Positions 4,037 through 64,000 are shown, counted from the first letter of the stretch. The stretch is DNA of 64,000 bases from a virus (IMGVR_UViG_3300043788_000040:64001-128000); one strand, 5' to 3'. The notes: a model not told the origin generated them from the sequence alone. A program made the numbers and translations.

Positions 4037-4285
4037 GAGTAGACATGCCACAACCGTATCGGTGGTCAGACGGGTACAACCCGAACATTCCGCGTAACTG
4101 CACAGCCTGCGGGGAACTTCTCCTGTTGGAGAACCTATACGTGGACGATGGGTGTCCCTGTAATTCCGCAAGGGGCGTCAATTTCAAGCCCCAGCCGTGT
4201 GATCTATGCCAACTTGACTGTTGTGTCAAGCCGGGGCATCGGCTATCTCAGCTATTCGGCTCCTAAAAATAGTGAAAATCAGTTG

Positions 4286-4314
4286 TTGACAATTTCTCAG
4301 CTACGCAGTATTCT
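4286..4314 (+). promoter_or_regulatory. sigma70-type promoter of Tyr/Leu tRNA array
   Basis: TTGACA-N17-TATTCT. Confidence 0.8.
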
Positions 4315-4424: not shown

Positions 4425-4455
4425 AGCCGCCGAAGTCAGGCGGCTTTCGTATTTT
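4425..4455 (+). terminator. Attenuator terminator hairpin
   Basis: AGCCGCC/GGCGGCT stem then TTCGTATTTT; 5' arm can instead pair with GGCGGTGTGTTC (4378-4389). Confidence 0.75.
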
Positions 4456-4466
4456 ATGGGCAAAAT

Positions 4467-4554
4467 GGAGGGGATGGCACAATGGCGTGCCAGCAGACTG
4501 TAAATCTGCCGACCCTTGCGGTCATGGTGGGTTCGATCCCCACCCTCTCCACCA
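4467..4554 (+). tRNA. tRNA-Tyr(GTA)
   Basis: GGAGGGG/CCTCTCC acceptor, GCAGA-CTGTAAA-TCTGC, long variable arm, TTCGATC T-loop, ACCA. Confidence 0.92.
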
Positions 4555-4569
4555 ATTTTGGAGCATCAA

Positions 4570-4800
4570 ATGAAAGTAACCCAGACGCACCTGATGAGGA
4601 AGACTGAGCAAGGCACCGAGGTCCACACGATATGCTGGCTCGATGTAAAGCCGAATGTGAAGGTTGGCTCAAGGGTGTCCTTAGAGGACTCGCCAAACGA
4701 GTGGTGGACTGTCTTGTCTCAGGGTGGGTTGCAAGACTCCTCAGAGATCAACCGGAAGTGGGGTCTGGACCTGCCGAAGACTCAACGGCTGGAAAGGTAA
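4570..4800 (+). CDS. Hypothetical protein
   Basis: GGAG RBS and ATG at 4570, 76 aa. Confidence 0.6.
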   Translation: MKVTQTHLMRKTEQGTEVHTICWLDVKPNVKVGSRVSLEDSPNEWWTVLSQGGLQDSSEINRKWGLDLPKTQRLER

Positions 4801-5091
4801 AGCGAAAGGGCATTGAGTCCGGCAAGGTCACGGTGTGCAAGCACTGCGACACGAAGCACCCCATGTACGCGAACGGGACGATTTGCTTCATGGCTTTCTT
4901 CTACATCTACGAGCGTGACTTGCTCTGGATGGCAAGTCACGACGGCACCGATGGCATATCGGGCTGGCGTGCGCTAGCGAATGATCTGGGGTTCAAGGAT
5001 GCAAAGATAGACGTGCCTTGGACATTCCCAGACGAGGGTCGTCTGATCCCGTACCGGAGGATCAAGGACGGCAAGTTTTTGAGCAAGTAAT

Positions 5092-5177
5092 GCGAGCGTG
5101 GCGGAATTGGCAGACGCAACAGGTCGAGAGCCTGTCGGTTAACAGCCATGGAGGTTCAAGTCCTCTCGCTCGCACCA
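5092..5177 (+). tRNA. tRNA-Leu(GAG), atypical anticodon loop (C33, A37)
   Basis: Leu-type D arm GTGGCGGAATTGGCAGACGC, ACAGG-TCGAGAG-CCTGT, T arm, ACCA. Confidence 0.85.
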
Positions 5178-5180
5178 AGA

Positions 5181-5291
5181 TTGTCGGGCTAATTCTGTGA
5201 AACGGATGTCGGCAGAACCCCCGGTGACGCGAGCCTAGCTGTGGCAGGCGAATTGACGCCAAGGCGCTTTGAGGCTGTGGTCGCCCGACAA
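5181..5291 (+). ncRNA. Structured inter-tRNA RNA
   Basis: Ends TTGTCGGGC / GCCCGACAA pair; fills the space between two tRNAs. Confidence 0.45.
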
Positions 5292-5298
5292 AGAATTT

Positions 5299-5385
5299 GC
5301 GGATATGGCGGAGTTGGCAGACGCGCTGGTCTCAGAAGCCAGTGGGGTAAAACCCGTGGAGGTTCGAGTCCTCTTATCCGCACCA
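5299..5385 (+). tRNA. tRNA-Leu(CAG) (A37)
   Basis: GCGGATA/TATCCGC, CTGGT-CTCAGAA-GCCAG, variable arm, ACCA. Confidence 0.93.
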
Positions 5386-5388
5386 AGT

Positions 5389-5534
5389 TTGAGAGCGTTG
5401 AGTGGGGGAACTGGCATACCCGGAGCGCCGTAAGGTGACTCCACGTCCCCGAATTGACGGGGGCTGCGGCGCAGCGTGGCGAAGGCAGTGCGGGTTCGAT
5501 TCCCGCCTCGGAAAGCTGCGACAACCGCTCTCAA
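5389..5534 (+). ncRNA. tRNA-like RNA lacking an anticodon
   Basis: TTGAGAGCG/CGCTCTCAA terminal stem, D-arm-like GGGGAACTGGCATACCC, GTAA-capped hairpin, GCGGG-TTCGATT-CCCGC T arm. Confidence 0.65.
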
Positions 5535-5538
5535 GAAT

Positions 5539-5663
5539 TTCGGGCGACTTCGTTGTTCATGACAGCGAAGCAGTGAGTAAGTGGCGGAATATGGCAGACG
5601 CGGCACTTCGGTGCTTGGATGCAAATCCTTGTGGGTTCGATTCCCACCGCTCCATCGCCCGAA
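5539..5663 (+). ncRNA. tRNA-Leu-like RNA with UUCG hairpin in place of the anticodon arm
   Basis: TTCGGGCGA/TCGCCCGAA ends; GTGGCGGAATATGGCAGACGC D arm; GCAC-TTCG-GTGC; GGAT-GCAA-ATCC; GTGGG-TTCGATT-CCCAC. Confidence 0.7.
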
Positions 5664-5679
5664 CGCGTATTGAGGTCTT

Positions 5680-6066
5680 ATGGCGAAGTTTGAAGACCAT
5701 TGCAAGGACTGTGAACGCATCCTCGGCAACAAGCGCGAGGACGTGAACCGCTGGATGGACGAGCTTTTCAAGCAGTACGGACCTCGTCATCGTAGGCATC
5801 GTCACTGCTGGCACGGGGTGCGCACGGCGCTCAAGTTGTTTGGTATTGAGGGTGCGAAAGCTGCTATCATCCATATCGTGCGCGACTGTGGCGAGGTGCC
5901 GAGCCAGCGCACTTACGACGAGACGGCGCTGGGTGGCGGTGGAATTGTCATCGCACCGGAGTACACGTACTCAGACGGCGAAGCGGCGCAGAAGTCGTTC
6001 GCTGATGTAGTGAACAAAGAGTTTGAACGTGCTGCTGGGATAATTGGTAAGGACTGGCAGCAATAA
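5680..6066 (+). CDS. Hypothetical protein, His/Cys-rich
   Basis: GAGG RBS; HCKDC and HRRHRH motifs. Confidence 0.7.
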   Translation: MAKFEDHCKDCERILGNKREDVNRWMDELFKQYGPRHRRHRHCWHGVRTALKLFGIEGAKAAIIHIVRDCGEVPSQRTYDETALGGGGIVIAPEYTYSDGEAAQKSFADVVNKEFERAAGIIGKDWQQ

Positions 6067-6152
6067 GCGCGAGTGGCGGAATGGCAGACGCACTAGCTTG
6101 AGGTGCTAGCGGTGGAAACATCGTGGAGGTTCGACTCCTCTCTCGCGCACCA
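6067..6152 (+). tRNA. tRNA-Leu(GAG), canonical
   Basis: CTAGC-TTGAGGT-GCTAG, G37, ACCA. Confidence 0.95.
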
Positions 6153-6157
6153 AATTT

Positions 6158-6296
6158 GGGGGAATAGCATTGTGGAATGCGCCGGGGGTAACCCGGAGAA
6201 GTCGGTTCGACTCCGACTCTATATTCGGCAGTTGCGTTGTTCCCGACCGGATTGATTCCGGCTCGCGGTGAGCAGAGGGCGATACTTCCCCCACCA
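6158..6296 (+). ncRNA. CCA-ended tRNA-like RNA, no anticodon loop, insertion after T arm
   Basis: GGGGGAA/TTCCCCC-ACCA 7-bp acceptor; D-like GCATT/AATGC; CCGGG-GGTAA-CCCGG; GTCGG-TTCGACT-CCGAC. Confidence 0.7.
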
Positions 6297-6303
6297 AGTT
6301 AGG

Positions 6304-6397
6304 GGAAGCTCCGTTGTGCTGTCGGTTCGACTCCGACGACGTAGGGAAGGGCAAGCCGTGTAGACGGCCCGATTCTCGGAGAGGCACAACGACTTCC
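6304..6397 (+). ncRNA. T-loop-containing structured RNA
   Basis: GGAAG/CTTCC and CGTTGTGCT/GGCACAACG stems; same GTCGGTTCGACTCCGAC T arm as the previous element. Confidence 0.55.
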
Positions 6398-6405
6398 ATA
6401 AGTTT

Positions 6406-6491
6406 GCGGCTGTGGCGGAATTGGCAGACGCGCTAGCCTTAGGAGCTAGTGGCTAATAACCGTGGGGGTTCGAGTCCCTCCAGCCGCACCA
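6406..6491 (+). tRNA. tRNA-Leu(TAG)
   Basis: CTAGC-CTTAGGA-GCTAG, ACCA. Confidence 0.95.
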
Positions 6492-6496
6492 AGCTT

Positions 6497-6571
6497 TGGG
6501 CGCGGAATATGTCGCCGTGGCGGATCGTATGCCGACACGGTGCCCGCACATTCGGGGTAGCGCCCACACCA
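6497..6571 (+). ncRNA. tRNA-sized CCA-ended hairpin RNA
   Basis: TGGGCGC/GCGCCCA stem followed by CACCA; no D or T consensus. Confidence 0.45.
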
Positions 6572-6575
6572 GATT

Positions 6576-6662
6576 GCCGGGATGGCGGAATTGGCAGACG
6601 CGGCGGCCTCAAACACCGTTGCCTTAAAAAGCGTGCAGGTTCGACTCCTGTTCCCGGCACCA
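6576..6662 (+). tRNA. tRNA-Leu(CAA)
   Basis: GCCGGGA/TCCCGGC, loop CTCAAAC, ACCA. Confidence 0.93.
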
Positions 6663-7072: not shown

Positions 7073-7102
7073 TGGACAAATCTACACCCCTGCCTGTATA
7101 CT
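7073..7102 (+). promoter_or_regulatory. Putative early promoter TGGACA-N18-TATACT
   Basis: Same motif at 60950-60979 (+) and 49432-49461 (-, TGGACG). Confidence 0.6.
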
Positions 7103-15011: not shown

Positions 15012-15153
15012 TTCGCAGCGGTGTATTGTACGGTTACTTCATGCAACCAGTAGGTCGCGGGTTCGAATCCCGTCATCCCAACGCTTTACGGGGTGTAGCT
15101 CAGTGGTAGAGCGACAGGTAAGAAAAACGCCGTGCATCTTTGTTCCCTGCGGA
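15012..15153 (+). ncRNA. YrlA-like Y RNA (circularly permuted tRNA-like domain)
   Basis: GCAG-C-GG/CC-CTGC bulged terminal helix; T arm, closed acceptor stem and D arm GCTCAGTGGTAGAGC in permuted order; motif shared with RNAs next to the TROVE gene. Confidence 0.75.
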
Positions 15154-15525
15154 TTAACTTTTCCTCGTTTAGCAAAACGAGGTGGCGCAGCGGAGAAGCT
15201 TTAGCGACTCCGTCAGCCGTTCTCGGACGTAAACCGAGTGGTGGAGGCGGGCACACTGTGCTCGCCCCTCAATGTCAGTTGAAGTACCGACGAGGCACGA
15301 AATGTGTGAACCGTTGACTCGGGAAAAAGACTGGCACCAAATTTGAAGATGTTGTCCCAGTCAAGCTGTCGGACTAAACTCTGGACCCGGAGTAATGGGC
15401 TTGAAAGAAGCCATGCCCTAATAAGGAAGGCTGACAGCAAAAGATTACAATGAAGCTCACGTCCCAACTCGACACGTTTACCACGCCGCTTAAGGCGGCG
15501 CAGTAAACCTATCTGTGTACTGTAC

Positions 15526-62664: not shown

Positions 62665-62766
62665 GTCGTGCAGCGGTGTTTAGCTGACGGATACTTCTTC
62701 CAATGAACAGCCCGCTAGGGCTGCGGAGGCTTGCCTCCTTTCCGTTGCTTATTGTTCCCTGCCGAC
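62665..62766 (+). ncRNA. Y RNA-like element 1
   Basis: GCAGCGG...ACGGATACTTC...CCGTTGCTTATTGTTCCCTGC; upstream of TROVE gene. Confidence 0.7.
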
Positions 62767-62775
62767 AATTCTTGT

Positions 62776-62901
62776 GTGCGGCGGTTTTTGGTTACGGTTA
62801 CTTCTGCCTGTAAAGCAGACGAGCGGGGTTCGACCCCCCGGCGACCCGTGAGGGTCGTGGCGTGGGCCTAGTCAAATACCGAAGCCTATTGTTCCCCGCA
62901 C
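62776..62901 (+). ncRNA. Y RNA-like element 2 with tRNA-Tyr-like arms
   Basis: GCGGCGG...ACGGTTACTTC...CCGAAGCCTATTGTTCCCCGC; TCTGC-CTGTAAA-GCAGA and T arm inside. Confidence 0.72.
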
Positions 62902-63019
62902 CTAATTTCACTCAGCACCAAACGGGACGCTTGCATGAGTACGCTGCCCGTGCTGTTGCCGAAACATGGCGTAGAACCAAGCGATAGGCACAGCAAATTT
63001 TAGTTCAAAGAGGTGAACT

Positions 63020-64000
63020 ATGGCATCACTCAACACTGCAACGAAGACTGCAAAGACTGCAATCAAGACCGCCGAGGGCGGCAAGGCTGTCAACATTGGC
63101 AAGGCGCTTCAGCTTCAGCGCTTGCTGAACGCATGCCTCCTGTGGGAGGACAACTTTTACTCTGACGGCGAGTCCGTCGCCAACGCGATGCGCAAGCTCG
63201 TGCGTGAGGTTCCTGCCGAGAAGGTCGCCGAACTCGCGATCAAGGCTCGTGAAGAGCAGAAGCTTCGCCACGCCCCGCTGCTCATCGTGTACGAGATGAC
63301 CCTCGCCTCCAAGTCTCACCGTGAGCTTGTCGGGGAGACGCTCGCCCGTGTGGTTCAGCGCCCGGACGAGATCACTGAGTTCGTGGCGATCTACTACAAG
63401 CTTGGCGGCGGGAAGCGTCCGCTCTCCAAGCAGGTCAAGAAGGGTCTGGCCGCAGCCTTCAACAAGTTCAACGAGTACTCGCTCGCAAAGTACAACCGTG
63501 ATAAGGACATCAAGCTCGCGGACGTGCTGGCGCTCGTTCACCCGAAGCCGAAGGACAAGGAACAGGGTCTTCTTTTCGCGAAGCTTGCGAACAAGGATCA
63601 CCTGCCGAAGAAGACGAAGTACGCCGCGTTTCCGGTGGCTAACACCTACCGTGCGCTCGCAAAGAACTTCGTCGGCCTCGTCACGCCGGACACTTGGGAG
63701 GTCGCACTCTCTGGTGGAGCGGACAAGAAGGAGACTTTCACTCGTCTCATCGCCGAGGACAAGCTTGGTGGTCTGGCAATGATCCGCAACCTGCGCAACA
63801 TGCAGGAAGCGGGCGTGTCGGATGCGGTCATCAAGCAGGGTCTCTCGCAGATGAACGCTGAGCGTGTGCTTCCGTTCCGCTTCATCTCGGCGGCGAAGTA
63901 CGCTCCGAAGTTTGAGCAGCACCTTGAGGCAGCGATGTTCAAGTGCCTTGAGGGCTTCTCCAAGCTGAAGGGCAAGACTGTGCTGCTCGTGGACGTTTCT
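63020..64000 (+). CDS. TROVE-domain (Ro60-like) RNA-binding protein with vWA domain, truncated by window end
   Basis: GAGGTG RBS; my translation gives CLLWEDNFY, KLRHAPL, QRPDE, KFNEYSLAKY, HPKP, TWEVALS, MIRNLRNM, LPFRF, LLVDVS. Confidence 0.9.
   Translation, partial: MASLNTATKTAKTAIKTAEGGKAVNIGKALQLQRLLNACLLWEDNFYSDGESVANAMRKLVREVPAEKVAELAIKAREEQKLRHAPLLIVYEMTLASKSHRELVGETLARVVQRPDEITEFVAIYYKLGGGKRPLSKQVKKGLAAAFNKFNEYSLAKYNRDKDIKLADVLALVHPKPKDKEQGLLFAKLANKDHLPKKTKYAAFPVANTYRALAKNFVGLVTPDTWEVALSGGADKKETFTRLIAEDKLGGLAMIRNLRNMQEAGVSDAVIKQGLSQMNAERVLPFRFISAAKYAPKFEQHLEAAMFKCLEGFSKLKGKTVLLVDVS

Follow-up and report, generated by a model that had tools for sequence, protein, structure and literature searches.

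Four structured RNA elements (A–D) are interspersed among the tRNA-Leu genes of a giant uncultured soil phage that encodes Ro60/Rsr, Y RNAs and tRNA arrays, and they are four different kinds of tRNA-derived RNA. The initial annotation had treated them as one family, a view that does not hold: B stems from tRNA-Leu(UAA), C joins a Trp-like cloverleaf to a Y-RNA module, D lacks a D arm and A is an orphan. From sequence comparison, all four almost certainly cannot decode, and we consider it fairly probable that C is a Y RNA that has tRNA ends and serves as a ligand of Ro60, B a former tRNA-Leu(UAA) that would be under selection, as would D, and A a lineage-specific element. The elements and the other features of the window (the whole 64,000-nt stretch of DNA that was analysed) are as follows.

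5389–5534, plus strand: element A, tRNA-like; its terminal stem is extended and bulged, and it has a D-like arm, an 8-bp hairpin capped by GUAA, a variable region of ~50 nt and a perfect T arm
5539–5663, plus strand: element B, a clamp-closed RNA apparently derived from tRNA-Leu(UAA); 12 sequences
5540–5547/5655–5662, 5548–5570 and 5582–5601, plus strand: clamp, 5′ hairpin and D arm of B
5602–5615, 5617–5628 and 5631–5647, plus strand: UUCG-capped hairpin, GCAA hairpin and T arm of B
5680–6066, plus strand: DUF6915-like gene (128 aa), embedded in phage tRNA arrays in every case; 29 related loci
6158–6296, plus strand: element C, a tRNA cloverleaf with a putative Y-RNA module; 9 sequences
6158–6164/6286–6292, 6293–6296, 6165–6181 and 6182–6196, plus strand: acceptor, ACCA, D arm and GGUAA hairpin of C
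6201–6217, 6218–6246, 6247–6262 and 6263–6285, plus strand: T arm, Y-type 3′ strand, cap and Y-type 5′ strand of C
6304–6397, plus strand: element D, closed by the terminal stem GGAAG/CUUCC and also containing a second stem of 9 bp, a T-arm-like hairpin (6321–6337) and a third hairpin
15027–15139, plus strand: YrlA-type Y RNA in the Pro/Met/Phe tRNA array, 48 kb from rsr
62669–62903, plus strand: two Y-like RNAs in canonical order, directly upstream of rsr, identified from sequence and a motif scan
63020–64000, plus strand: Ro60/Rsr (TROVE) gene, extending beyond the end of the window; its protein is the presumed partner of C

The window corresponds to bases 64001–128000 of a 170.5-kb IMG/VR virus record estimated to be 54% complete. 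The 31 tRNA genes of this record are clustered by amino acid, and the Tyr/Leu array at 4467–6662, which holds five tRNA-Leu genes, is the home of elements A–D. A sigma-70-like promoter (4286–4314) and a terminator-like hairpin (4425–4445) lie ahead of this array; the site at 4286 is its single promoter-like site, the next one being at 7073, and one transcript probably carries A–D together with the Tyr/Leu tRNAs. An A/U-rich linker of 4–9 nt follows every element, and all six spacers of the array fold with a terminal stem. The spacers S1 (5180–5298) and S2 (6492–6575) are also self-closing RNAs conserved in relatives, with homologues in L023 and L027 for S1, and in L016–L019 and L027 for S2; the terminal stem of S2 is compensatory across relatives (GGGCGC/GCGCCC versus GAGAGC/GCUCUC), and its 3′ end in the window reads ACACCA.

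Relatives were retrieved via the 128-aa gene located 3′ of B, giving three IMG/VR loci and 29 metagenome loci; L-numbered contigs are metagenome fragments, and G001 is a complete relative of 332 kb. About 15 related loci share the array order Tyr, Leu-GAG, Leu-CAG, (A), B, gene, Leu-GAG, (C), (D), Leu-UAG, Leu-CAA. A blastn search of the GenBank phage collection returned generic tRNA-Leu matches only, with nothing close to the elements. Some related arrays carry insertions or broken tRNA-Leu copies: at L003:3389–3910 a tRNA-Leu is split by an HNH homing endonuclease-like gene with duplication of the tRNA 5′ half, a broken tRNA-Leu lies at ~4150–4235 of the same contig, and L018 has a similar HNH-like insertion after S2.

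A perfect T arm is present in all four elements, and A, B and C combine a D-arm-like element with a capped hairpin in place of the anticodon arm (GUAA in A, UUCG in B, GGUAA in C), as the initial annotation had described. The hairpin loops in the window are 4 or 5 nt long, compared with the 5-bp stem and 7-nt loop of an anticodon arm, and ARAGORN called no tRNA at A, B, C or D in the window; decoding by these RNAs is almost certainly ruled out. A 7-bp acceptor followed by a discriminator and CCA is found in C, and is missing from A, B and D. In Rfam searches, the tRNA model RF00005 matched C alone, partially (29.9 bits, model positions 7–64). A strict T-arm pattern (5-bp stem, UUCRANN loop), scanned over the 170-kb genome, gave 35 matches, all on the plus strand and comprising 28 tRNAs, the four elements, two Y RNAs (15057 and 62824) and one coding sequence, against an estimated chance expectation of ~1 per whole genome. 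Folding z-scores were −3.2 for A, −3.0 for B, −2.65 for C and −2.0 for D.

Element C has the topology acceptor 5′ strand, D arm, hairpin, T arm, capped Ro-type helix, acceptor 3′ strand and ACCA. Its 7-bp acceptor (GGGGGAA/UUCCCCC), the ACCA and an insertion of ~65 nt after the T arm had already been noticed and are all present in the sequence, with 68 nt separating the T arm from the 3′ acceptor strand; the hairpin is CCGGG-GGUAA-CCCGG. Eight further contigs contain C, and across the nine sequences the acceptor, the D arm and the T loop are invariant, with 7/7 acceptor pairs in every sequence and ACCA in 8/9. The hairpin at the anticodon position shows strong covariation in its stem, and its loop is GUCCAA in six of the nine sequences, UUCCAAA in L033 and GGUAA in the window and L018. 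ARAGORN calls the L033 copy Trp-CCA, and together these loops suggest a tRNA-Trp ancestor. In pair counts made on an unfitted MAFFT alignment, 95% of cells at paired positions are paired (43–55% in slid controls) and 10 pairs are compensatory, with a covariation score that was reached in 0/500 shuffles. This covariation comes from the hairpin, T stem and cap; neither the acceptor nor the D stem nor the Ro-type helix varies, and these consequently show none. An exact pattern for the 5′ end of C had no matches in IMG/VR, and C was not found in the complete relative G001, which has rsr. An intron was considered for the insertion and rejected, being too small for group I and in the wrong place; even without the insertion the hairpin loop would be 5 or 6 nt.

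The insertion, anonymous in the initial annotation, holds the helix motifs of the Ro60-associated Y RNAs of this phage. The two Y-like RNAs at 62669–62903 provide reference copies of three parts: the helix with the bulged C, the box ACGG(A/U)UACUUC and the strand UAUUGUUCC. In the Y RNAs of the phage, the 5′ strand reads GCAG-C-GGUG...ACGG(A/U)UACUUC and the 3′ strand ...UAUUGUUCC-CUGC. The module of C runs, 5′ to 3′, ...GCGUUGUUCC-CGA, a variable cap (16 to 51 nt across the nine sequences) and UCG-C-GGUG...GGCGAUACUUC, that is, the same parts in reversed order, and the pairing of CCCGA with UCG-C-GG around a bulged C is invariant in 9/9 sequences. C is the only one of the four elements with the features of a Ro60-binding module, a GNCGAA-type box and a bulged-C helix, carried by UCG-C-GGUG, GGCGAUACUUC and UUGUUCC-CGA. 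The polarity of the module toward the tRNA-like body is likewise the same in C and the Y RNAs, from the closed end through the bulged-C helix, internal loop and box helix to the tRNA domain. The 170 kb contain five loci with a motif pair defined on the phage Y RNAs (CGG[UC][GU]-N9-17-WUACUUC and, no more than 150 nt away, UUGUUCCC), compared with 0.0 in 200 shuffles; C has the pair in permuted order, and the other four loci have it in canonical order. The pair is absent from B and D, and A has a lone GGCGAAG, possibly by chance. Since C carries motifs found otherwise only in the Y RNAs of the phage, we probably have here a novel Y RNA that ends like a tRNA; the link rests on short shared motifs, and binding by Rsr is predicted.

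The Ro60/Rsr gene itself was identified from PF05731 matches (40.4 and 23.7 bits) in a 477-aa open frame and from PHROG 850, RNA-binding protein (E 1e-25). The distance between C and rsr is 57 kb; published Y RNAs, by contrast, adjoin the gene. The YrlA-type RNA at 15027–15139 matches Rfam RF02553 over the full model length (E 5.9e-9) at a sub-threshold 45.1 bits (gathering score 69), and its place inside the Pro/Met/Phe tRNA array shows that tRNA operons of this phage house Y RNAs. At L024:678–761 and L033:3189–3264, ~70-nt Y RNAs of canonical order sit between Leu-GAG and Leu-CAG, suggesting that Y RNAs are regular residents of these arrays. In profile searches, the Rfam YrlA model did not match C, RF02553 run on A–D at E ≤ 10 returned only fragments spanning a T arm, and nhmmer profiles built from the two module strands of C were too short to find the canonical Y RNAs and missed them. 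A loose Ro-module pattern gave 120 chance matches in IMG/VR, none with a UACUUC box.

Several further features of the genome touch on this subject. A short third Y-like RNA lies downstream of rsr, beyond the window (genome 129027–129100), and the three rsr-flanking Y-like RNAs share a GCRG-C-GG/CC-CYGC helix, a UAUUGUU strand and a UACUUC box. Another structured stretch follows the YrlA-type RNA at ~15170–15330. A CCA-adding/poly(A) polymerase family protein (PF01743, 128 bits, 481-aa frame) is encoded at genome 138044–138406, also beyond the window, and RtcB was not found in the 54%-complete record.

Element B is known from 12 sequences, in all of which it lies directly 5′ of the DUF6915-like gene, with a gap to the start codon of 7–21 nt (17 nt from the end of B to the ATG in the window). 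The 12 sequences have in common a clamp (UCGGGCGR/YCGCCCGA; UCGGGCGA/UCGCCCGA in the window), an 8–10-bp 5′ hairpin of free sequence, an acceptor, a Leu-type D arm and a T arm; in the window, the Leu-type D arm is accompanied by GGCAC-UUCG-GUGCU, a GCAA-capped variable hairpin and the T arm GUGGG-UUCGAUU-CCCAC. Paired cells amount to 90% (42–52% in slid controls), and 13/32 pairs are compensatory, including 7/9 in the 5′ hairpin. The clamp, with two compensatory pairs, is nearly invariant in sequence next to a 5′ hairpin that drifts freely, which points to sequence-specific recognition.

The anticodon arm of B, by contrast with these kept parts, differs in nearly every lineage. Its loop departs from 7 nt in 10/12 sequences, with 4-nt loops (UUCG, UCCG, GUAA and UCGC by lineage), 6-nt loops (GUAACU, GUAGAA, GUAGCA in two sequences, and UUCAUC) and 7-nt loops (UCAGCGC on a 3-bp stem, CCUAAAA, called Leu-UAA, and CUUGAAC, called Ser-UGA). 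The L016 copy of B is called tRNA-Leu(UAA) by ARAGORN. The long variable arm is retained in five sequences and gone in seven, no CCA is encoded, and the discriminator is G, U or A by lineage. Because the clamp and the Leu-type parts are kept, the anticodon arm is divergent, the CCA is missing and the discriminator varies, we read B as the sixth Leu isoacceptor of the array converted to a non-decoding RNA; by these comparisons, the elbow, the acceptor, the added 5′ hairpin and the clamp are under selection and the anticodon arm is free and mostly sealed. The acceptor, of the type GAGAUG/CAUCUC in relatives and 7 bp long in most of them, has lost its pairing in the window copy (2/7 pairs) and in L018, and B may be degenerating in this lineage as a result. 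All terminal stems had been reported as intact, which is true of the stem of A, the clamp of B and the acceptor of C (7/7), but not of the acceptor of B in the window. An IMG/VR pattern search for B recovered true tRNA-Leu genes and one already known relative only. Once released, B may act as a tRNA-like RNA that is stable in itself; alternatively, it may be a leader delimiting the DUF6915-like mRNA next to it.

The protein encoded by this mRNA matches Pfam DUF6915 below the cut-off (E 1.8e-4) and has ten invariant residues (H7, C8, W25, D27, H37, R38, R41, H42, H65, D69); tRNA-Leu(GAG) begins at the base right after its stop codon. No sequence match was found in the PDB, and a helical AlphaFold model (pLDDT 72) gave no Foldseek or VIA-align match above background. 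As a guess, it is a candidate HD-like hydrolase. In low-GC relatives, the gene is the first after a Thr-rich leader and a terminator.

Element D repeats the 17-nt T arm of C exactly, at 6321–6337, confirming what had been noted before, and has no D arm. Homologues occur in L016/L017 (91%) and L033 (80%), 8/30 pairs are compensatory among the three sequences, and Rfam gave no match. We class D as a conserved T-loop RNA, and the best reading of B and D together is that they are selected non-decoding RNAs released from the tRNA operon.

Element A has the terminal stem UUGAGAGCG/CGCUCUCAA and the T arm GCGGG-UUCGAUU-CCCGC at 5490–5506; its ends lie inside the long stem and it has no CCA. Its D arm is like that of the short-variable-arm tRNA-Leu genes in L003 and L025, and on this comparison we take A to be a lineage-specific derivative of a short-arm tRNA-Leu. 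Related contigs have no homologue of A save the identical contig L015, and in the closest relatives, L016–L018, A is missing and the tRNA abuts B directly. A may be young or decaying, and the stable caps are the sole argument for selection on it. The tRNAs at L003:4063–4140, L003:4240–4318, L025:543–704 and L025:1654–1732 place Leu anticodons on a class-I body of 78–79 nt with a 5-nt variable loop and an encoded ACCA, which is unusual for bacterial-type tRNA-Leu.

An unlikely alternative is that the elements are purely cis-acting operon furniture, namely self-closing spacers that prevent mispairing between the similar tRNA-Leu precursors and provide landmarks at which RNase P or RNase E excises the tRNAs and embedded mRNAs, with no role after release. 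Closure of all six spacers by a terminal stem with short A/U-rich linkers in between, the one promoter for the entire array, and the position of B just ahead of a start codon in relatives, with the next tRNA right after the stop codon, would all fit this explanation. However, an insulator needs pairing alone, yet the acceptor, D arm, T loop, hairpin loop (GUCCAA in 6/9) and Y-type strands of C are conserved in sequence, as is the clamp of B while the hairpin beside it drifts; moreover, several relatives without A, C or D keep the same tRNAs.

Going beyond our reading of C, this RNA might be a working tRNA/Y RNA hybrid, matured by RNase P and the CCA machinery and maybe aminoacylated or bound by tRNA-handling factors, which would couple Ro60 to the tRNA and translation machinery, and B-type sealed tRNAs might belong to a class of phage tRNAs, widespread but so far undescribed, that do not decode and serve some function specific to them. 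We regard this extension as quite unlikely.

More doubtful is the proposal of the initial annotation that the elements are decoys for host tRNA-targeting toxins, elbow binders or CCA-modifying enzymes, or ligands of an anticodon-blind synthetase such as LeuRS. Phage tRNAs are known counter-measures against anticodon nucleases, A, B and C retain D and T arms capable of forming an elbow, their anticodon loops are sealed rather than decayed, and C has A73-CCA and sits in a Leu array. An anticodon nuclease, however, could not be decoyed without an anticodon loop, the Y-RNA motifs explain the extra arm of C, the ends of A are buried in a long stem that has no CCA, and no defence or toxin context was seen. 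Our analysis added nothing in favour of decoys, and B argues against them with its missing CCA and variable discriminator. As a LeuRS ligand B is unsuitable for the same reasons and through the lost acceptor stem of the window copy; bacterial LeuRS requires A73.

That the elements are merely decaying tRNA pseudogenes, produced by duplication in a fast-changing array, is very improbable and for B, C and D already contradicted by covariation: broken tRNA-Leu copies do occur (L003 ~4150–4235 and the HNH-duplicated 5′ half), A is without homologue in the nearest relatives and window B has lost its acceptor pairing, but rather than eroding without compensation the stems of B, C and D are kept by compensatory changes (13/32, 10/43 and 8/30 pairs) although the neighbouring protein is only 55–70% identical, and the sealing loops are stable tetraloops of independent origin. 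The covariation check across relatives that had been suggested at the outset thus returned compensatory pairs in three of the elements, and the original argument against random decay stands for these three; comparison with relatives lends A no support.

Our preferred reading remains that of non-decoding RNAs derived from tRNAs, with C as a Y RNA. From the structures, their conservation and covariation, the shared motifs and the presence of rsr, we infer how Rsr binding, processing and function might proceed. The operon transcript would be cut after each element at the A/U-rich linkers (AGUUU, GAAUU, AAUUU), which presumably resemble the preference of RNase E, and RNase P would cleave at tRNA 5′ ends. 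C would be released with tRNA ends and be exonuclease-resistant, and phage Rsr would bind it via the capped helix, predicted to comprise an outer helix with the bulged C, a UUGUU internal loop, and a GNCGA-type box followed by UACUUC. The tRNA body of C may let RNase P and the 3′-end/CCA machinery mature and stabilise the RNA, and, like its counterpart in YrlA, may be the module that faces effectors. Release of B and D would yield stable RNAs closed by clamps, and B may also define where the DUF6915-like mRNA begins, the stop codon of this mRNA being directly followed by the next tRNA.

If this is correct, C would be a natural Y RNA variant with a complete CCA-ended tRNA body and the Ro-type helix as a side arm, making Ro60 binding, RNase P/CCA processing and possible charging separable on one small RNA. 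B and D would be selected non-decoding tRNA derivatives in phage tRNA arrays, missed by tRNA finders and Rfam, and many large phages may carry similar RNAs. A single toolkit for RNA maintenance may be made up of Ro60, Y RNAs and tRNA arrays together. A full-text literature search found no account of a Y-type module grafted on a CCA-ended cloverleaf, nor of clamp-closed, sealed-anticodon tRNA derivatives.

Known systems resemble the elements in part. Unexplained small RNAs, RNAC and RNAD, lie in the T4 tRNA region (PMC3014915); like them, A–D are non-tRNA small RNAs inside a phage tRNA operon, behind one promoter, and are set alongside by location only, and T4, unlike this phage, has no Ro60. 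Deinococcus radiodurans Yrn1 (RF01053) has the same order of D-like region, hairpin and T arm as A and B, and RF01053 matched the GCAA hairpin and T arm of B weakly and partially (22.9 bits, E 0.56, gathering score 80). The possibility that A and B are Yrn1-type Y RNAs was dropped, as they lack the Y-RNA motifs of the phage and the RF01053 match covers only this hairpin and T arm. B resembles tRNA-Leu(UAA) in its Leu-type D arm, its T arm and, in most relatives, its 7-bp acceptor, and differs in having no encoded CCA, an unconserved discriminator, and an extra clamp and 5′ hairpin that enclose the molecule.

Phage Ro60 and Y RNAs are already known (PMC4201824, PMC12135203, PMC7824862), and phage Ro60 and its Y RNAs recruit host PNPase in vitro (PMC12135203). 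The closest counterpart of C is YrlA (RF02553), a tRNA-like Y RNA of bacteria and phages (Chen et al. 2014, PMC4201824) that tethers or gates Ro60 (PMC4201824). As with C, the genome also has Ro60/Rsr, a Ro-type helix and box are joined to a tRNA-like domain with D and T arms, and the module runs from outer helix through internal loop and inner box helix to this domain. YrlA, however, ends in the Ro stem, which replaces the anticodon arm, and its acceptor is a closed hairpin, giving the order T arm, closed acceptor hairpin, D arm, a topology that C does not have; in C, the Ro-type helix is capped and exits between T stem and acceptor, a separate anticodon-like hairpin stays, and the ends are those of a tRNA acceptor with encoded ACCA. 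RNase P opens the YrlA of M. smegmatis in vivo, where CCA is also added to it (PMC4201824), which yields a Ro60-bound RNA whose tRNA-like domain has an open 7-bp acceptor and CCA. This form is opened post-transcriptionally into two pieces, whereas C, as one chain with genomic ends, encodes that end state directly.
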